Source: Candidatus Methylomirabilis limnetica (lineage in GTDB: Bacteria; Methylomirabilota; Methylomirabilia; Methylomirabilales; Methylomirabilaceae). Taken from it: a DNA stretch of 32,000 nt. Below are positions 3,171 through 32,000 of this stretch, in pieces (positions within the stretch are counted from its first letter, which is position 1; each line of letters starts with the position of its first letter). The DNA is taken from NCBI RefSeq assembly GCF_003044035.1, contig NZ_NVQC01000022.1:300001-332000 (forward strand). Direction: 5' to 3'. Below the pieces are notes generated by a model, which was not told where the DNA came from, made no database searches, and saw only the letters and a list, made by a program, of their open reading frames with translations. Both the position numbers and the translations under genes were made by a program.

Positions 3171-3258
3171 GTCATTGCGAGCGACCAACGGGAGCGCGGC
3201 AATCTCATCGTCCTTGCAGTGCGAGATTGCTTCGGTCGCCACGCTCCCTCGCAATGAC
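3171..3258. repeat. Family A palindromic repeat, gene-less copy
   Basis: Forward arm GTCATTGCGAGCGACCAACGGGAGCGCGGCAATCTC (3171-3206), 16-nt spacer, inverted arm GAGATTGCTTCGGTCGCCACGCTCCCTCGCAATGAC (3223-3258). Each arm also has an internal ATTGC/GCAAT stem. It is flanked by GGGTA GGGTGTA GGGTTA (3149-3166) and ACCCTAG ACCCTTT (3297-3310). Confidence 0.9.
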
Positions 3259-6913: not shown

Positions 6914-8130
6914 GATCGACGGCGTCCCCCACGCTTCCATTCCTCGAAGCGTTCAGCAATATACGTCGCGATCCGTTTTTCGAAAATCGAGCGATCGAAT
7001 GTAAGGGCATGCGTGCGAAGCGCCTCTGGATCGAACCGATCGGCTGATCGCTCGAACAGGTCGATAGCCTGGATCACCGCCTCAATGGTCTGCTCGTAGA
7101 AGAAAATGCCGGTGGGGGCCTCGGGTTTCGGGTTTCGGGTTTCGGGTTTCGGGTTCGCAGACGTTCTTGACTCCAAACTCGAAACTCGAAACTCGAAACT
7201 GTTTAACGGGACAACGGTTTCCGTCACCCCACCCTTGCCATACGCGATTACCGGCCGGCCGCTGGCCATGGCCTCAACCGGCAGGATACCAAAATCCTCC
7301 TCACCTGGAAATATCAGCGCGCGACAGCGGCTCAGAAGGTCGGCAACCTCGCTGTCCGGACGCCACCCCAGAAATTCGATGGTGGGACCGGCCATGCGCC
7401 GCAGTCGTTGGCTCTCCTGACCTTCACCCACGATCACCAGGTGTCGTCGCAGATGGTTGAAAGCCTCAATGGCGAGATCGATCCGCTTATACGGAGCCAT
7501 GGCTCCGGCCACCAGGTAGTAGTCGTCCGTCCGCTCGGCGATATGAAAGCGCGCGGTCTCGACCGGAGGATAGATCACCTCAGCCTCACGCCTGTAATGG
7601 CGTCGGATCCGATCCGCTACATGATGGGAGATGGCGACGAAGTGATCGATCCTGATGTTGACCGCGATATCCCACCGTCGCAAGCGTCCGGCGATAGCGC
7701 GTAACATAAGTCTAGACACCGGACCCATTCGGCCAGAGCCCACATAGGCATCCTGCATGTCCCAGATGTAGCGCATGGGGGTGTACACATACGCAATGTG
7801 AAGAGCCTCTGGCGGGGGTCTGACCCCCTTGGCCACGCAGTGGCTGCTCGACAGGATCAGATCGTACCCATCGAGTTTGAGCTGCTCGATGGCCCACGGA
7901 AATAGGGGCAGATAGTAGCGATAGCGGCTGGCGGCAAACGGCAACGCCTGGATAGCCGACGTCCGGATTCGCCGTTCTTCGATGGTCTTCGATGCGCTTC
8001 CCTTCACATGCAGCAGGGTGAAAATATCCGCTCCCGGAAAGAGCTCACAGAGCGCCTCCAGGCATCGCTCTCCCCCCCGCATCCCGGTCAGCCAATCGTG
8101 AATCAGCGCAACCTTTGCCTCATCCAACAT
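6907..8130 (-). CDS. Glycosyltransferase family 4, carrying an in-frame repeat-element insertion
   Basis: N-terminus VALIHDWLTGMRGGERCLE and the EX7E region EEDFGILPVEAMASGRPVIAYGKGGVTETV. An atypical segment of about 27-30 aa (PLNSFEFRVSSLESRTSANPKPETRNPKPEAP), encoded by the heptamer element at 7121-7201, precedes TGIFFYEQ. Confidence 0.9.
   Translation of the reverse strand: MLDEAKVALIHDWLTGMRGGERCLEALCELFPGADIFTLLHVKGSASKTIEERRIRTSAIQALPFAASRYRYYLPLFPWAIEQLKLDGYDLILSSSHCVAKGVRPPPEALHIAYVYTPMRYIWDMQDAYVGSGRMGPVSRLMLRAIAGRLRRWDIAVNIRIDHFVAISHHVADRIRRHYRREAEVIYPPVETARFHIAERTDDYYLVAGAMAPYKRIDLAIEAFNHLRRHLVIVGEGQESQRLRRMAGPTIEFLGWRPDSEVADLLSRCRALIFPGEEDFGILPVEAMASGRPVIAYGKGGVTETVVPLNSFEFRVSSLESRTSANPKPETRNPKPEAPTGIFFYEQTIEAVIQAIDLFERSADRFDPEALRTHALTFDRSIFEKRIATYIAERFEEWKRGGRRRSC
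7121..7201. repeat. Heptamer inverted-repeat element inside the GT4 CDS
   Basis: Counted directly: 5 x TCGGGTT (7121-7155), 19-nt spacer, about 3.7 x AAACTCG (7175-7200). The reverse complement of AAACTCG is CGAGTTT, versus CGGGTTT in the other arm, which gives one G:T position per unit. The 81-nt total is 27 codons with no stop. Confidence 0.92.
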
Positions 8131-8168: not shown

Positions 8169-9161
8169 CTAGACGAACCACCGGCCCATCTGTTCCGTAG
8201 AGGCGCGGCAGCGCTTCATAATAATCCCACGCTTGTAGCGAGCCCTGGGCAAGTATTTCTTCAGGTCCAATACGGCCTTTAAGAGAGCAGGTTCTATGAG
8301 GGCGACGTAGACCATCGCGCGTACCCCCAACCACAGGATCGGTAAGCAATCCCGTCGCAGTAGAGCTGGGAGTTCATTTTTGATCATCATTAAGGAATGA
8401 TTCTTGAAGGAGTGATACTTCCGGAGCCACGGGACGCGCCGGCGATCATCTCTACGCTTCCACCCCCGCAGGTGATAGGCGATTGCTGCGGGGTTATACC
8501 GCGAGCCCCAACCAAGCAATTGGGCCCGCCAGCAGGTGTCTACGTCCTCCTTGTAGGCGAAAAAATCCTCGTCGAAATACTCCCCATCAATCTGAATATC
8601 ATCAAGCATTGACCGTCGGTAGAGGACCGCCGCCCCGCAGATACTGAAGACCTCCTCGGGCTTGTCATACTGGCCCACATCAAGCTCCCCGTGTCCTCTG
8701 TCGATGACTCGTCGACTTCGAAAGATCAGGTGGCCAGTACTGTCAAGTATCCGTGGTGCGTCACCACTCGGCCCGCTGTCGGTTTGGGAGTCGCCCAGGA
8801 GGAGCTTGCCGCCCACAGAACCCACGCCAGGCGCCGAGACCATGACCCCCACCAATTCCTCCAGGTGCCGAGGTCCCAATACAACATCAGGATTTAGGAG
8901 CATGACGTGATCATACCCATCCGCTTCCCGAACGATACGGTTCGCTCCACCGCTGTATCCAAGATTGTCCTGCATCGCCAGGATCTGCACCTCGGGATAG
9001 GCGTTGCCGATAGGTCCAATCTCATCGGCGCGACTGTGGTTATCGAGTACAATCACCCGATCGGCCCGCATGGTCTGGCGCTTTATGCTATCCAGGCAGT
9101 CCGGCAGATGGCGGTAGTCACCGTAATTGATAATCCCAACCGCCACGCGCGGATCTGTCAC
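8169..9161 (-). CDS. Glycosyltransferase family 2 (rhamnosyltransferase-like)
   Basis: VAVGIINYGDYRHLPDCLDSIKRQT, VLDNHS, and FFAYKEDVDTCWRAQLLGW (the ED.D..R block typical of this GT2 subgroup). The ATG at 9161 overlaps the rfbD stop by 4 nt. Confidence 0.9.
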   Translation of the reverse strand: MTDPRVAVGIINYGDYRHLPDCLDSIKRQTMRADRVIVLDNHSRADEIGPIGNAYPEVQILAMQDNLGYSGGANRIVREADGYDHVMLLNPDVVLGPRHLEELVGVMVSAPGVGSVGGKLLLGDSQTDSGPSGDAPRILDSTGHLIFRSRRVIDRGHGELDVGQYDKPEEVFSICGAAVLYRRSMLDDIQIDGEYFDEDFFAYKEDVDTCWRAQLLGWGSRYNPAAIAYHLRGWKRRDDRRRVPWLRKYHSFKNHSLMMIKNELPALLRRDCLPILWLGVRAMVYVALIEPALLKAVLDLKKYLPRARYKRGIIMKRCRASTEQMGRWFV

Positions 9162-10027
9162 GATGAGCTTCTCCCCGATGCCCGATCTTTCAGATAGGCT
9201 TCTAGCGCATCTCGCCAGTCGCTGAGGTCATCGAGATCAAGCGATCGCAGGTTCGCGTTATCCAGGACGGAATAGGCCGGTCGAGCGGCGCGGGCGGCAT
9301 AGGCGGCACTGGTCGTCTCGATGAGGTGGGGGCGCACACCCGATAGCTCTAAGATCGCTTGGGCGAATTGGTACCAGGAGCATTCGCCGTTGTTAGTGAT
9401 GTGATACAGCCCGTAGGCGCCAGTCTCGACCAATTGTCTGACCTTGCAGGCCAGCTCCTTGGCGCTTGTAGGGGTCACGATCTGGTCGCCCACCACACGG
9501 ATTTCGCGCCCATCCGCTGCCAGTCGGAGTATCGTTTCGACGAAATTTCCCGCCTTGCCGCGACTGCCAGCCATTCCATACAGCCCGCAGGTCCGGATGA
9601 GGTAATACCTCTCCAGGGCGGCTTGAACAAAGTATTCGCCGGCTAATTTCGAGGTGGCGTATGCGCTCAGCGGCCCAGGTCGATCAACTTCCCGGTACGG
9701 GCTGAGCTGCCTGCCGTCAAAGACATAATCGGTGCTGAAGTGGACGAGCGGCGCCCCGATCTCCTTGGCGACGATCGCAAGATCCCTCACCGCAGTCGCG
9801 TTCACGGCGAATGCCCGCTCGGCGTAATCTTCGCACTCATCGACCCGATGGTAGGCGGCAGTGTTCAAGATCAGATTTGGTCGGTGCTTGATAAGAGTTT
9901 CCCGTACCTGTACCGGGTTGGTCAACTCCAGGTCAGCATGCGTCAATGGGATGAGGTCATGATTACCAAAGGCCTGCCGCAGTTCGCTCCCCAACTGCCC
10001 GTCAGCACCGATCAGGAGGGTACGCAT
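9158..10027 (-). CDS. rfbD: dTDP-4-dehydrorhamnose reductase
   Basis: MRTLLIGADGQLGSEL start at the ATG at 10027. NTAAYHRVDECE, YATSKLAGE (YxxxK), and a length of about 289 aa typical of RfbD. The ORF-track N-terminal extension overlaps the upstream gene and is rejected. Confidence 0.9.
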   Translation of the reverse strand: MRTLLIGADGQLGSELRQAFGNHDLIPLTHADLELTNPVQVRETLIKHRPNLILNTAAYHRVDECEDYAERAFAVNATAVRDLAIVAKEIGAPLVHFSTDYVFDGRQLSPYREVDRPGPLSAYATSKLAGEYFVQAALERYYLIRTCGLYGMAGSRGKAGNFVETILRLAADGREIRVVGDQIVTPTSAKELACKVRQLVETGAYGLYHITNNGECSWYQFAQAILELSGVRPHLIETTSAAYAARAARPAYSVLDNANLRSLDLDDLSDWRDALEAYLKDRASGRSSS

Positions 10028-14964: not shown

Positions 14965-15382
14965 GGGCAAGTGCAAGGACCTCCGTTACAGAGAAATCCT
15001 GAATCGATGGCAAGTGCAAGGACCTCCGTTACAGCATTTCCAATCTGCCACATAACGAGGCGGCAGAGAATAAACCACCTCTTGAAGTAAAGGTTGTTGC
15101 TGTGGCTCTCTACGGCGCAGTAAGTAAAATCAGCACGATCCAAGCGCTTGCCTTTGGCGCGCTCCGCCCATCGCTGCACGGTCGGCGCAGACACTCCGTA
15201 TTGGGTGGGCTGCGACCTCACGCAGCGATTGTCCAGCACGTACCCCTATGACCATTTCGCGCCGCTCTTGCTCAATCTTGTTTTTTTACTCATGTTGATC
15301 ACCTCCATGAAGTGTTTTCTACCATCTTACTGTAATGGAGGTGCTTGCACTTAGCTGTAACGGAGGTCCTTGCGCTTGCCCC
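14965..15382. mobile_element. Decayed mini-IS / MITE-like element with doubled inverted ends
   Basis: GGCAAGTGCAAGGACCTCCGTTACAG occurs at 14965-14991 and 15009-15034. Its reverse complement occurs at 15330-15352 (2 mismatches) and 15355-15382 (1 mismatch). The interior carries a frameshifted HTH gene. Confidence 0.7.
15100..15293 (-). pseudogene. Frameshifted N-terminal HTH domain of a transposase-like protein
   Basis: GGAGGT plus 7 nt precedes the ATG at 15293, giving MSKKTRLSKSGAKWS*. Shifting frame gives EQERREMVIGVRAGQSLREVAAH, and shifting back gives QYGVSAPTVQRWAERAKGKRLDRADF. Together these read as a typical LS.EQR..IV....G.S.REVA..GVS..TV.RW transposase HTH broken by two frameshifts. 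Confidence 0.6.
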
Positions 15383-16753: not shown

Positions 16754-17924
16754 CTAGTGTAGTGTTGCATAATTAGCTTGACTTATATCTCCGCATCGGT
16801 TAGGGTGGCTAAGGAGGTGAGACCGATGCGGACCGCGTGTGACATTGTACTGACGGACACGGAACGAAGCACGTTGCAACGCTGGTCGCGTGGTCGTAGT
16901 ACCCCGATCCGAGTGGTGCTCCGATCGCGCCTGGTGCTGTTGGCGGCACAGGGTCTGATGAACAAAGACATCGCCACCGCCGTGGGAACGTCGCGCCAGA
17001 GTGTCGGGCTGTGGCGGTCGCGATTTGCCGCGCAGCGACTGGCGGGCATCGAGCAGGATGCGCCTCGGGGAGGGCGCCGGCCGACCCGTCGGGATCAGGT
17101 GGCTCGGCTGATTCTGGAGCGGACCACCCAGACGGTGCCGTGCAACGCCACCCACTGGAGCGTACGCACCCTGGGGACGGCATTGGGAATCTCGCCCACG
17201 ATGGTACATCGTGTCTGGAAGGCCCACGGGCTCAAACCCCATCTGAGCCGGACGTTCAAGCTCAGCAATGATCCGAGCTTCGTGGAGAAACTTCTCGATA
17301 TCGTCGGGCTGTATCTGAATCCGCCAGAGCACGCCTTGGTGCTGTGTGCCGATGAGAAGAGTCAGATCCAAGCGCTCGATCGCACCCAGCCGGGTCTGCC
17401 GCTGAAGAAGGGGCGGTGCGGGACGTACACCCACGACTACAAGCGGAACGGGACAACCACCCTGTTCGCCGCCCTGGAACTGGCGGAGGGGCGACTGATC
17501 GGATCCTGCATGCCCCGGCATCGCCATCAGGAGTGGATCACCTTCCTCACACGCATCGATACGCAGACCCCGGCGGACCTCGATCTGCATCTGATCATTG
17601 ACAATTATGCGACCCACAAACACCCGGCTGTGCAGCGGTGGCTGCAACGACACCCGCGCTTCCATATGCATTTTACTCCGACGGCCAGTTCCTGGTTGAA
17701 TTTGATCGAGCGATGGTTTCGGGAGCTCACGGATAAGCGTATTCGCCGTGGCACCTTCCACAGCGAGCAGCACCTGATTCAAGCGATCATGGATTACATG
17801 ACCGAACATAATCAGCACCCCAAATCATTTGCCTGGACGGCCAAGGCCGAGACCATCCTCGCGAAAGTCGCCCGCGCCAGAGCTGTCTTGGATAAGTCAG
17901 CATCAGCGTGAAACACTACACTAG
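16754..17924 (+). mobile_element. IS630-family insertion sequence, apparently intact
   Basis: Terminal inverted repeats CTAGTGTAGTGTT (16754-16766) and AACACTACACTAG (17912-17924). TA dinucleotides sit at both junctions (16755-16756 and 17922-17923), consistent with IS630 TA target duplication. Single transposase ORF; length about 1.17 kb. Confidence 0.88.
16826..17911 (+). CDS. IS630-family DDE transposase
   Basis: AGGAGG at 16812-16817, then the ATG at 16826. An N-terminal HTH region is followed by a DDE_3-type core: CADEKSQIQALDR ... LIIDNYATHKH ... SWLNLIERWFRELT. Confidence 0.92.
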   Translation: MRTACDIVLTDTERSTLQRWSRGRSTPIRVVLRSRLVLLAAQGLMNKDIATAVGTSRQSVGLWRSRFAAQRLAGIEQDAPRGGRRPTRRDQVARLILERTTQTVPCNATHWSVRTLGTALGISPTMVHRVWKAHGLKPHLSRTFKLSNDPSFVEKLLDIVGLYLNPPEHALVLCADEKSQIQALDRTQPGLPLKKGRCGTYTHDYKRNGTTTLFAALELAEGRLIGSCMPRHRHQEWITFLTRIDTQTPADLDLHLIIDNYATHKHPAVQRWLQRHPRFHMHFTPTASSWLNLIERWFRELTDKRIRRGTFHSEQHLIQAIMDYMTEHNQHPKSFAWTAKAETILAKVARARAVLDKSASA

Positions 17925-29436: not shown

Positions 29437-29560
29437 CTTGTCCTTCCCTCTCCCTCTTGGAAGGAGAGATACACCCGTATCTGACATTTTACACGCTTGC
29501 GGTTGCCTTGTCCTTCCCTCTCCCTCTTGGAGGGGGAGGGTTGGGGTGAGGGTGGGACAG
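29437..29560. repeat. Family B repeats on the left flank of DUF559
   Basis: CTTGTCCTTCCCTCTCCCTCTTGGA occurs twice in direct orientation (29437-29461 and 29507-29531, 70-nt period). The second copy extends to the hairpin CCCTCTCCCTcttggAGGGGGAGGG plus TTGGGGTGAGGGTGGGACAG. Confidence 0.85.
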
Positions 29561-29878
29561 GGCGTTCTCAATCGCCTGCAACACCGGCTCAAGATTACCT
29601 AACACTTCGTGATCCCAGAACCGGAGTACCCGATAGCCTCGGTGAATGAGGAATTCCGTACGTCGCTCATCGGCTGGGATTTGAGTGCCATGGTGGCCAC
29701 CATCGACCTCCACCACGAGCCAGTGTGCCGGACAACAGAAATCTACAATGTACGAACCGATGGGATGCTCACGACGAAACTTGGCGCGATGAATCTGTCG
29801 GTCGCGCAACTGCCACCACAGCACCCGTTCACAGTCGGTCTGCCTCCTTCGGAGTCCTCTGGCGAGCCCACGGTTCAT
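29489..29878 (-). CDS. DUF559 / Vsr-like endonuclease-fold protein
   Basis: CERVLWWQLRDRQIHRAKFRREHPIGSYIVDFCCPAHWLVVEVDGGHH...DERRTEFLIHRGYRVLRFW is the DUF559 pattern. The C-terminal tail HPHPNPPPPRGRGKDKATASV is read-through into the family B repeat. Confidence 0.85.
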   Translation of the reverse strand: MNRGLARGLRRRQTDCERVLWWQLRDRQIHRAKFRREHPIGSYIVDFCCPAHWLVVEVDGGHHGTQIPADERRTEFLIHRGYRVLRFWDHEVLGNLEPVLQAIENALSHPHPNPPPPRGRGKDKATASV

Positions 29879-29880
29879 GA

Positions 29881-29961
29881 CCCCCTCACCCTGGCCCTCT
29901 CCCCCGTGTGGGGAGAGGGGACTTTTTTGCTGCTCTTCGCACCCACTGGGGGGAGAGGGGG
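29881..29961. repeat. Family B repeats on the right flank of DUF559
   Basis: CCCCCTCACCCTGGCCCTCTCCCCCgtgtGGGGAGAGGGGAC (29881-29922; perfect 10-bp stem 29896-29905/29910-29919), followed by TTTTTT. A partial second copy, CCCACTGGGGGGAGAGGGGGC, lies at 29942-29961. Confidence 0.85.
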
Positions 29962-30099
29962 CTTTTAGGCCTTTGAACCATGGGTGTTACCCACACAATT
30001 TCCGTAAGAACTTAAATTGTAGCGGGTATGACCTGGCGCGTCAAGTGTTCCGGCGGCCCCTAGAATAGCGATAGACTGCGCAATCATTCGATTCTTCCC

Positions 30100-30176
30100 G
30101 TCATTGCGAGCGACTCACGGGAGCGTGGCAATCTCAGTGCAATAATGCGTGATTGCTTCACTTCGTTCGCAATGAC
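30100..30176. repeat. Family A palindromic repeat, gene-less copy
   Basis: Forward arm GTCATTGCGAGCGACTCACGGGAGCGTGGCAATCTC (30100-30135; 33/36 identical to 3171-3206 by my count), 15-nt spacer, short inverted arm GATTGCTTCACTTCGTTCGCAATGAC (30151-30176). Confidence 0.9.
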
Positions 30177-30912: not shown

Positions 30913-31042
30913 GTCATTGCGAGCCGTAGGCGAAGCAATCCCGTGGCGACACCGCCAAGAACAGTCAGATTGCTTCGGCTTTGCCTCGCACAATGACAGA
31001 AGGGGGGTCATTGCGAGCGACCAACGCGAGCGCGGCAATCTC
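30913..31042. repeat. Family A repeats: a complete short-arm copy plus the long forward arm abutting the GIY-YIG gene
   Basis: GTCATTGCGAGCCGTAGGCGAAGCAATC (30913-30940), 27-nt spacer, GATTGCTTCGGCTTTGCCTCGCACAATGAC (30968-30997). After 9 nt comes GTCATTGCGAGCGACCAACGCGAGCGCGGCAATCTC (31007-31042; 35/36 identical to 3171-3206). Confidence 0.9.
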
Positions 31043-31328
31043 ACAGCCCTTCAAATAAATCATCCCGCGTCGGATTCATTCCATTGATCAACTGAAGCTT
31101 CCTCGCTCGTGAACCCGCTTTGAGCTGCTTCTCCCGAACTATCGCAGCCTCGATATCGTCATACACCTCGTAGTACACCAGCTCGGTGAGATTATACCGC
31201 TTGGTAAAGCCCTCCACCAGTTTAGCGCGATGCTCGTAGACGCGTTTGATCACGTCACTTGTGACGCCGACATACAGCGTGGTGTGCGCCTTAATTGTCA
31301 TAATGTAGATGTAACCGGGCCTTTGCAT
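31041..31328 (-). CDS. Small GIY-YIG nuclease-family protein (COG2827 / YhbQ-like URI domain)
   Basis: GYIYIMTIKAHTTLYVGVTSDVIKRVYEHRAKLVEGFTKRYNLTELVYYEVYDDIEAAIVREKQLK carries the GIY...YVG motif, the conserved R and E, and the family-typical length of 95 aa. Confidence 0.9.
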   Translation of the reverse strand: MQRPGYIYIMTIKAHTTLYVGVTSDVIKRVYEHRAKLVEGFTKRYNLTELVYYEVYDDIEAAIVREKQLKAGSRARKLQLINGMNPTRDDLFEGL

Positions 31329-31356
31329 CTCCGCTCATTTACCTATCAAATACGGT

Positions 31357-31371
31357 GAGATTGCTTCGCCT
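31357..31371. repeat. Truncated inverted arm of family A
   Basis: GAGATTGCTTCGCCT matches the start of inverted arms (compare 3223-3234 and the reverse complement of 30913-30940). It diverges from about 31372. Confidence 0.7.
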
Positions 31372-31387
31372 GTGCCTACTCAGAAAC

Positions 31388-32000
31388 TTAAGCCGGTATT
31401 GGGAGTGGTGTTAAGCAATAGCCCAACTGAGCGGCTTGACGTTGTAGTGATTTGGTATGTCGGTCATGTTGTTGTTGGTCATACGCCTTGGCAGAGGCAT
31501 GTCGATAAGGCTGACGATGCGTCAAGAGATGATAAATAATGCGCGCCAATTTATGAGCGGTAGCGACAATAGCTTGTGCGCCGCCCAAACGTGCCCGCAT
31601 CCGCCGATAGAATGCGCCCAGGGCGCTCTGACTGCGACTGAGCGATTGAGCCGCCAGGCGCAAAGCCTGGCCCGCCCGATTGTGAACCTTCAGGGTGCGA
31701 CTGCGAATCACCTTGCCGCCGGTAATATCATTGTGCGGTGCCAGGCCCAGCCAGGAACAGAAATGCTTTTCCGTTCGCCACTTGCTCATGTCTGTCCCGA
31801 TTTCGGACAGCACACCTTGAACCGTGCTGTCATCCAGTCCATCCACCACCGTCAGGTCAACGCCCGTCAACCGATACAGGTGGCCTCGCACATCAAAGGT
31901 CGGCGCGTTCTTGCTGTGCGAGTTCACTTTGGGGTCAGGTGGCAAGGGCGGCAAGTCGTCATCAAACCGGGGTGTGAGGGCGCTGTATTGTTGTTCGAGT
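31388..32000 (-). CDS. IS110-family recombinase/transposase, C-terminal part (5' end beyond the window)
   Basis: The frame is open to the window edge; hand check gives LEQQYSALTPRFDDDLPPLPPDPK... upstream of the ORF-track start. Transposase_20-type block LTGVDLTVVDGLDDSTVQGVLSEIGTDMSKWRTEKHFCSWLGLAPHNDITGGKV...ALGAFYRRMRARLGGAQAIVATAHKLARIIYHLL. Confidence 0.88.
   Translation of the reverse strand, partial: LEQQYSALTPRFDDDLPPLPPDPKVNSHSKNAPTFDVRGHLYRLTGVDLTVVDGLDDSTVQGVLSEIGTDMSKWRTEKHFCSWLGLAPHNDITGGKVIRSRTLKVHNRAGQALRLAAQSLSRSQSALGAFYRRMRARLGGAQAIVATAHKLARIIYHLLTHRQPYRHASAKAYDQQQHDRHTKSLQRQAAQLGYCLTPLPIPA

Follow-up and report, generated by a model that had tools for sequence, protein, structure and literature searches.

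A GIY-YIG nuclease gene nested in a convergent repeat pair of Candidatus Methylomirabilis limnetica: a probable Ssn / SRM module with a distinct arm subtype

The DNA analysed here (hereafter, the window) is a stretch of 32,000 nucleotides from the genome of Candidatus Methylomirabilis limnetica (assembly GCF_003044035.1, contig NZ_NVQC01000022.1, positions 300,001 to 332,000 of the forward strand; unless another locus is named, positions count from the first letter of the stretch). Towards its end, an open reading frame (ORF) of 95 aa on the minus strand (31041..31328) encodes a single-domain GIY-YIG protein and lies between two oppositely oriented copies, or arms, of a palindromic repeat, which a first-pass annotation of this DNA had termed family A. 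This locus is very probably a module of the Ssn / SRM system, in which Ssn nucleases are associated with dispersed Ssn-related motifs (SRMs); the arms would then be the cognate motifs of the ORF product. The assignment of the ORF to the GIY-YIG proteins, already proposed in the first-pass annotation, is confirmed by its sole Pfam match (PF01541, E 1.2e-13, residues 5-77).

The arms follow the pattern YGTC-ATTGCGAG...GCAAT-CTC, that is, a GTC tag is followed by a 5-bp basal stem (ATTGC/GCAAT) around a variable interior of 16-24 nt, and a long form (GTCATTGCGAGCGACCAACGGGAGCGCGGCAATCTC) can be distinguished from a short one (GTCATTGCGAGCCGTAGGCGAAGCAATC). The arm downstream of the gene (31007..31042, plus strand, 36 nt) reads GTCATTGCGAGCGACCAACGCGAGCGCGGCAATCTC on the plus strand and is identical to the arm at 3171-3206 in 35/36 bases; its final two bases are shared with the TGA of the ORF. 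On the other side of the gene, a leader of 28 nt (31329..31356, minus strand, by direct reading) extends from the ATG to the upstream arm, which is inverted and starts as GAGATTGCTTCGCC... at 31357, 28 nt past the ATG. The two arms are convergent, their tags pointing outward, and the interior between them measures 314 nt.

Convergent pairs of the same repeat also occur in the window without any gene inside them: (i) at 3171..3258, with a 16-nt loop, in the stretch that separates pyrG from the gene of a PfkB-family kinase; (ii) at 30100..30176, with a 15-nt loop, formed by a long arm and a short arm; and (iii) at 30913..30997, with a 27-nt loop, formed by short arms and only 9 nt away from the gene-bearing (ssn) unit. 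These gene-less pairs, which outnumber the filled one by 3:1, are combinations of long and short arms with the same polarity as in the gene-bearing unit, and all copies of the arm in the window are intergenic. When the 14-mer GTCATTGCGAGCGA was searched allowing up to two mismatches, seven matches were found in the window versus 0.37 expected, a number that none of 100 shuffled sequences reached (0/100). Re-reading of the sequence confirmed the positions reported in the first-pass annotation, together with the arm match, the overlap between arm and stop codon, the length of the interior and the three gene-less units with their spacers of 16, 15 and 27 nt.

One point calls for a correction. The restart of the inverted arm at 31357, 28 nt past the ATG, stands, but this arm, only apparently partial, is no short variant: it continues as far as 31377, where an insertion sequence (IS) of the IS110 family cuts it off. 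The inner half of the arm (31357..31377, minus strand, delimited by comparison with L081, in which the same locus is assembled over a greater length, and with the intact arm of orthologous loci) reads AGGCACAGGCGAAGCAATCTC on the minus strand, and the IS (31378..32000, minus strand, approximately 1.6 kb in all) lies inside the arm and runs off the end of the window, where its ORF matches PF02371. In L081, the order is GTCATTGCGAG, an IS110 element of approximately 1.6 kb, AGGCACAGGCGAAGCAATCTC, 28 nt and the ATG: the two halves of the arm are found at 8327-8337 and 9953-9973, and the IS, at approximately 8338-9952, encodes a product of 452 aa with the domains DEDD_Tnp_IS110 and Transposase_20 and has a non-coding left end of approximately 245 nt (approximately 8338-8582). 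The missing outer half of the arm, GTCATTGCGAG, is hence located approximately 1.6 kb away, outside the window. In the orthologous loci L084 and L086, the upstream arm is intact (GTCATTGCGAG...GAAGCAATCTC, followed by 27-28 nt and the ATG) and the leader is kept (ACCGTCTTTGA...GGAG ATG). As the IS110 element cuts the upstream arm in two, the downstream arm is the sole intact motif of the window unit.

The related strain represented by L084 has an identical IS end (ACTCAGAAACTTAAGCCGG...), which extends from approximately 3312 up to the end of the contig and occupies the same position in another arm. Thus, the IS110 element appears to target the multi-copy repeat site-specifically and in a fixed orientation, to judge from these two insertions, and it provides a natural example of an IS110-family element landing on a repeat of this kind.

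The first-pass annotation considered the pairing of a GIY-YIG nuclease with such a repeat to be undescribed. This claim did not hold, as the pairing has been published as the Ssn / SRM (NTS) system, comprising the Ssn nucleases, the SRM hairpins and an NTS-ssnA-NTS architecture (Chenal et al., 2025, Nat Commun 16:2388, PMC11893778). In Neisseria, SsnA, a GIY-YIG protein of 94 aa with a single domain, binds the repeat NTS (CGTCATTCCCGCGMAVGCGGGAATCYRG) only as single-stranded DNA (ssDNA). The cut is made a few nt upstream (5') of the motif, double-stranded DNA (dsDNA) is left uncut and RNA is not bound; cleavage depends on the three nt that precede the stem and binding on the C that follows it, while the loop is dispensable and tolerates extension or splitting (Chenal et al., 2025). 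Site-specific cleavage limited to ssDNA is known for four homologues, and the biological role tested for SsnA is restriction of transforming ssDNA only (Chenal et al., 2025). Regarding genomic distribution, the SRM pattern of those authors detected at least one motif at 71% of homologue loci and motifs on both sides at 42%; likewise, 81% of the genomes with >200 SRMs encode a homologue, which relates the copy number of the repeat to the gene (PMC11893778). A literature search for follow-up work on Ssn found none.

Ssn nucleases are GIY-YIG proteins of the cd10448 type, for which the published homology threshold is a tblastn E < 1e-10. The comparison protein used here was the N. gonorrhoeae orthologue of SsnA, and not the meningococcal protein itself; it is encoded by a 94-aa ORF in locus L088 (N. 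gonorrhoeae NZ_CP119140.1, 1880787-1884044), in which the ssnA product shows Y6, Y17 and E64 and nine exact matches to the NTS consensus are found within 3.2 kb. The window protein matched the N. gonorrhoeae chromosome by tblastn (PLSDB) with E 2e-23 and 52% identity, well within that threshold; PLSDB includes two complete gonococcal chromosomes (2.17 Mb) filed as plasmids. By blastp against the gonococcal 94-aa ORF, 45/86 residues were identical (52%), with no gaps (E 7e-34). Residues Y8, Y19 and E66 of the window protein align with Y6, Y17 and E64 of SsnA, which are the residues mutated by Chenal et al. (2025), and they are invariant in an alignment of 81 homologues whose lengths cluster at 89-99 aa. 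Altogether, the residues invariant in those homologues (Y8, Y19, G21, R29, H33, E66, K67, K70, K77 and N85) are all present in the window protein. Searches of NCBIfam and of PDB sequences with the window protein gave no matches, and a protein search seeded with an NTS-flanked homologue (from L063) returned no Neisseria protein among the best 120 matches listed.

The closest named protein (P0004, 86 aa, Ca. Methylomirabilis limnetica) is 100% identical over 91% of the query and is misleadingly annotated as 'excinuclease ABC subunit C'. Some database proteins of the family carry N- or C-terminal extensions that are translated arm, as gene callers run ORFs into the repeats; for instance, the N-terminus of the homologue P0010 reads MLAMT..., where LAMT is the translation of the arm CTCGCAATGAC.

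Apart from the protein, the arms themselves share the outer features of SRMs. All seven arms of the window (7/7) read (Y/G)GTC-ATTGC...GCAAT-C and hence carry the SRM tag and the C after the stem. Among 353 arms from 80 homologous loci (see below), the position preceding GTC (-1) is T in 59% and C in 27%; the stem starts with ATT and ends with AAT, C follows directly, and then T and C (the latter two in 71% and 63% of the tails, respectively). The longer arms often have an interior stem-loop whose sequence is locus-specific, such as GCCCCGAT...ATCGGGGC or GGGGAC-AAA-GTCCCC. By analogy, these variable interiors fit the replaceable and extendable loop described for the NTS, a fit that is no proof of the same recognition for this subtype. 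In L084 (3239-3263), the motif GTCATCCCGAGCAGAGCGAGGGATC, with a core ATCCC...GGGAT, lies inside the loop of a ATTGCGAG-type pair, so that two SRM-like subtypes coexist in one Methylomirabilis relative.

In general terms, the likeness to the Ssn / SRM system lies in: (i) a single-domain GIY-YIG protein of approximately 94 aa, with 52% identity and the same catalytic Tyr/Tyr/Glu; (ii) a dispersed, oriented repeat in which a 5' (Y)GTC tag precedes a stem that begins with AT and is followed by a C; and (iii) the presence of the repeat on both sides of the gene, with clustering around the gene and a mostly intergenic location. As for the differences, the core of the window arms is ATTGCGAG...GCAAT, whereas that of the NTS is ATTCCCGCG...CGCGGGAAT; the window arms have a 5-bp stem, a variable interior and a length of 26-36 nt or more, whereas the NTS has an 8-bp stem and a short loop. 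Furthermore, the window gene is nested precisely in one convergent pair and has its stop codon inside an arm, whereas the adjacent motifs of the gonococcal locus face the other way.

How general this arrangement is was assessed in 80 loci with homologues 53-67% identical to the window protein, taken from one-genome-per-species contigs. According to the record titles, these loci belong to Dehalococcoidia, Anaerolineales, Nitrospirota, Methylomirabilis, Aminicenantes, Planctomycetota, CPR2, Staskawiczbacteria, Omnitrophota, Syntrophaceae, Gastranaerophilales, Kangiellaceae, Melioribacter, WOR-3, Nitrospinota, Eubacteriales, filamentous cyanobacteria, Rickettsiales and others. The pattern used to search for arms included the GTC and the C after the stem, and a motif-free detection of inverted repeats recovered the same ends. 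In most loci (110 nt per side displayed), YGTCATTGCGAG...GAAGCAATCTC is found upstream of the gene and (T)GAGATTGC...CTCGCAATGAC downstream. Within 150 nt of the gene, a forward arm is present upstream in 59/80 loci and an inverted arm downstream in 51/80, and 46/80 have both. The same tag (GTC plus 8 nt) is found on both sides, in inverted orientation, in 55 of the 80 loci.

The spacing is also conserved. Arm and ATG are separated by a median of 31 nt (59 loci), and 37 convergent pairs enclose the ORF alone, their interiors measuring 290-394 nt (median 315 nt, versus 314 nt in the window). The register of stop codon and arm seen in the window (TGAGATTGC or TAGATTGC, with the arm 2-3 nt past the first base of the stop codon) recurs in 21 of the 51 loci with a downstream arm. 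In these same loci, 52 gene-less convergent pairs were counted, with a median loop of 23 nt. Hence, the proposal of the first-pass annotation that the gene occupies the spacer position of a convergent repeat pair which also exists without a gene is borne out, in the same register, by homologous loci of many phyla, and other members of the gene family are indeed bracketed by arms.

More than 500 nt away from the gene, only 110 arms were found in 1.08 Mb (0.10/kb, counting both orientations), so that less than one locus per side is expected to have an arm by chance, and chance bracketing, a doubt that had been raised about dense intergenic repeats, is rejected. The gene-in-pair arrangement is far beyond chance. 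Within the loci, 243 of the 353 arms lie within 500 nt of the gene. This distribution also bears on the suggestion that the arms are host-regulatory repeats acting at the RNA level (terminators of the repetitive extragenic palindromic (REP) type, or hairpins that stabilise mRNA), with no specific link to the gene. All the copies in the window are intergenic, the pairs fold stably, and RNA roles have been proposed in the literature for REPs of the CGTC type. Nevertheless, arms are approximately 100-fold enriched next to the gene as compared to distant flanks, and they keep a fixed register with it; moreover, SsnA does not bind RNA (PMC11893778). Nothing relevant was found by Rfam searches of the whole window (gathering threshold) and of L081 8000-10500 (E-value scan), and no terminator-like T-run follows the pairs. 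The RNA-level explanation is therefore very unlikely. A scan for sigma-70-like promoters in or near the upstream arm of an intact orthologue found none.

Other arm types bracket homologues of the gene as well. The motif-free search revealed, e.g., GTCATGCCCGCGAAGGCGGGCATCCAG in an alphaproteobacterium and GTCATTCTGAG / CTCAGGATGAC in a metagenome-assembled genome (MAG) of Omnitrophota. Besides, some homologues at 55-60% identity have canonical NTS-type arms, and those of L063 correspond to the exact NTS consensus (CGTCATTCCCGCGAAGGCGGGAATCCAG).

Several observations weigh against the identification of the locus as an Ssn / SRM module. First, the published pattern (HGTCWYN(0-2)YYVSBRHN(0-5)WNVSBRGN(0-2)RNCYNB) matches none of the seven window arms (0/7), the two matches that it has in the window both being unrelated sequences, and among the homologous loci it occurs within 300 nt of the gene in 7/80 only. 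Second, single arms are weak hairpins: for those of the window, folding energies range from -1.6 to -7.2 kcal/mol and z values (-1.2 to +1.5) are not significant, whereas the canonical NTS reaches -8.9 kcal/mol (z -4.6) in the same folding comparison. When 268 distinct arms were compared to versions with shuffled interiors, 15% had z < -2 and 1% z > 1, with a median z of -1.0 for arms of 35-45 nt. The whole pair at 3171-3258, folded as ssDNA, reaches -26.5 / -28.1 kcal/mol (z -3.7 / -4.0); pairing between arms being much stronger than pairing within an arm, a pair in ssDNA may form one long hairpin that buries the GTC tags. Third, the biochemically characterised Ssn enzymes are outside this arm subtype, and in the gonococcal ssnA locus (L088) the nearest NTS tags (CGTC) face the gene, opposite to the outward-pointing tags of the window and of most of the 80 loci. 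Finally, I12 and R88 of the window protein depart from the N and W found, respectively, in 91% and 95% of the homologues (n=81).

The last of these points also concerns the state of this particular copy. The gonococcal protein has W at the position equivalent to R88, and two syntenic orthologues (P0002 and P0003) have both N and W, while a third protein (P0001) shares R88 with the window protein. Given the split upstream arm and the two substitutions at family-conserved positions, the window copy of the ssn-type gene may be impaired or decaying. As regards the arms, they share the outer SRM features yet fail the published pattern, and the protein passes the homology threshold; the locus is thus best read as an Ssn / SRM locus whose arm subtype falls outside the search pattern as published.

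Three other known systems resemble the locus. The REPs tagged with CGTC (Di Nocera et al., 2013, BMC Genomics 14:522, PMC3733652) show an unpaired C/TGTC tag, a stem that opens with AT, and a tail of 3 nt; most are arranged as inverted dimers, and they are present in several phyla and 'apparently lack a dedicated transposase'. The window arms share with them the YGTC tag, the AT-start stem, the 3-nt tail, the inverted pairing and the occurrence in several phyla. They differ in that CGTC-tagged REPs have a stem of 8-9 bp, a loop of 4-5 nt and a CCA tail, whereas the window arms have 5 bp, an interior of 16-24 nt and CTC, and hence do not belong to that class as defined; in 2013, no nuclease was linked to it.

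The second system is that of the REP-associated tyrosine transposases (RAYTs) and the REP doublets called REPINs, in which a usually low-copy gene lies between inverted hairpin repeats that are abundant elsewhere as gene-less inverted pairs, hairpins being recognised in ssDNA. But RAYTs are HUH/Y1 transposases associated with a GTAG tag, and here a GIY-YIG protein is found with a YGTC tag, which places the locus outside that class. In addition, RAYTs have a known cleavage-joining chemistry, while for Ssn only cleavage is known. The third comparison is with IS elements and their MITEs (miniature transposable elements with inverted repeats): a gene-bearing unit and short gene-less derivatives share terminal inverted repeats, and the boundaries of the unit are the repeat ends. 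In contrast, the locus shows no transposase fold and no target-site duplication, and the gene is syntenic among close relatives. Chenal et al. (2025) had already likened NTS-ssnA-NTS to an insertion sequence and to IS200/IS605 transposases with REP repeats and bacterial interspersed mosaic elements (BIMEs). A free-standing GIY-YIG homing endonuclease was also considered as a candidate and rejected: the window protein has a single domain and 95 aa, and members of the Ssn family do not cut dsDNA.

Such likenesses raise the question of mobility. It is possible, although doubtful, that arm-ssn-arm units and gene-less pairs form a couple of autonomous and non-autonomous elements, in which the unit would mobilise itself, the nuclease nicking its outer boundaries in ssDNA, and the gene-less pairs would be MITE-like derivatives moved in trans. 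This reading is an addition to the Ssn / SRM identification, not an alternative to it, and the mobile-element hypothesis is also raised by Chenal et al. (2025). The unit is discrete: DNA similarity between genomes ends exactly at the outer arm edges (-55/+38 for L007/L056; -69/+35 for L014/L058), and two copies in one Nitrospirota MAG (L071 and L080) share only approximately 530 bp, with unrelated flanks, a third copy in another MAG behaving likewise. Arm type and gene are found together in many phyla, and the gene has no taxonomic signal, as the same-genus homologue L004 is 66% identical, versus 65-67% for Chloroflexota homologues. In favour of mobility are, too, the polarity and the long- and short-arm combinations of the gene-less pairs of the window, the varying number of such pairs next to the gene among orthologous Methylomirabilis loci, and the clustering of arms near the gene.

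By contrast, the gene is syntenic in four related assemblies, always downstream of the same gene of approximately 430 aa and its terminator (protein identity: 92% for L084/L085, 93% for L086 and 80% for L087). A single copy was found in the 32-kb window, and the genes called over 20 kb of L081 include no second GIY-YIG gene. No target-site duplication or direct repeat was found at the three gene-less pairs; phage records (INPHARED) gave no match and IMG/VR a single contig. The only biological role tested for an Ssn protein, as mentioned above, is restriction of transforming ssDNA. Besides, GIY-YIG enzymes are hydrolytic nucleases and are not known to perform joining or strand transfer. An even more speculative view, to which we give somewhat less credit, is that arm-ssn-arm is an autonomous element of a new mechanistic class, delimited by the outward-pointing GTC tags, with a 95-aa GIY-YIG ssDNA nickase as its sole protein; gene-less pairs, including the CGTC-type REPs, would be its non-autonomous derivatives, moved or copied via single-stranded intermediates, and the ATTGCGAG subtype would make the system far wider than reported.

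Around the Nitrospirota copies, further conserved sequence was observed: in L071 (10325-10463), L080 and L056, all from MAGs, the conserved unit reaches approximately 110-140 nt past the downstream arm (...ACTGAAAGTTATTTGTGGCACTCAGC), and GTTTTG-like motifs lie just outside both arms.

If the Ssn / SRM identification is right, the protein would, by analogy with the Neisseria and Wolbachia enzymes, bind the arm when the DNA becomes single-stranded (e.g., during replication, repair, transformation or conjugation). It would recognise the GTC tag and the basal stem as well as the C following the latter, and would nick the strand a few nt 5' of the tag; specific cleavage of ssDNA by the window protein is presumed on the same analogy. 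As a convergent pair offers one motif per strand, one nick per strand would be expected, just outside the pair, and for the plus-strand arm of the ssn unit the predicted position is approximately 31003. Such a geometry is compatible with the release or copying of the pair as a unit, with or without the gene. As to the biological pay-off, the system could serve to control how incoming ssDNA recombines, as in Neisseria, or else to propagate the pairs of repeats.

The predicted nicks, lying outside the pair, speak against another idea of the first-pass annotation, that of a centre-homing endonuclease, which needs a dsDNA cut in the spacer: the nuclease would cut the spacer of an empty pair and repair would copy the gene in. 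Gene-less pairs do resemble empty sites, with loop ends similar to those of the gene-bearing interior (ACCGTC... and ...ACGAT / ...CTGT). However, this similarity is equally explained by a conserved arm tail, CTCAYCGTC, on both arms. Moreover, characterised Ssn enzymes leave dsDNA alone and cut ssDNA 5' of the GTC, which in this orientation is outside the pair; the protein lacks a further DNA-binding domain, in which it differs from the characterised multi-domain GIY-YIG proteins, homing endonucleases among them; and gene-less pairs outnumber the filled ones both in the homologous loci (52:37) and in the window. Centre-homing is, in consequence, extremely improbable. For its part, the related notion that gene-less loops are remnants of gene ends was set aside as not decisive, since the same bases can be read as that arm tail.

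The main outcome is an extension of the Ssn / SRM system of 2025 to Methylomirabilota, and the related loci carry it further, to many phyla that have been little studied. Since the published SRM pattern misses the very common YGTC-ATTGCGAG...GCAAT-CTC subtype, the reported values of 71% and 42% are probably underestimates. What is new with respect to the published work is modest: an arm subtype that fails the SRM pattern, a register of gene and arm conserved across phyla, unit boundaries located at the tags, and an IS110 element that appears to target the arm. This refined architecture (the gene in one convergent pair, the stop codon in an arm, an interior of approximately 315 nt and similarity ending at the tags) provides a basis for tests of mobility. 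On the other hand, each new pair of nuclease and motif is a candidate tool for site-specific cutting of ssDNA.

Other features of the window deserve a mention. A gene for a DUF559 / Vsr-like endonuclease (ORF 29489-29878, minus strand, within the region 29437-29962; L081 3799-4218) has palindromic motifs, GGGGAGAGGG / CCCTCTCCCC, on both sides, and a second DUF559 copy, approximately 7 kb away, has short G/C-rich hairpins on both sides; the DUF559 gene and its palindromes may be another small pairing of nuclease and repeat. Telomere-like heptamer arrays are found at 1410-1470 and 7123-7150, the former with approximately nine GGGTTTA units between a KDO8P-synthase-like gene and pyrG, and the latter, further on, with four GGGTTTC units. 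Inverted repeats of 27 nt, 96% complementary and 318-363 nt apart, occur at 14965-15035 and 15354-15381, near the end of an unannotated ORF of 550 aa; the left side has two copies in direct orientation and the right side a single one. Finally, an insertion sequence of the IS630 type (16754-17924) encodes a DDE_3 transposase with helix-turn-helix domains and is bounded by terminal inverted repeats of 33 nt.

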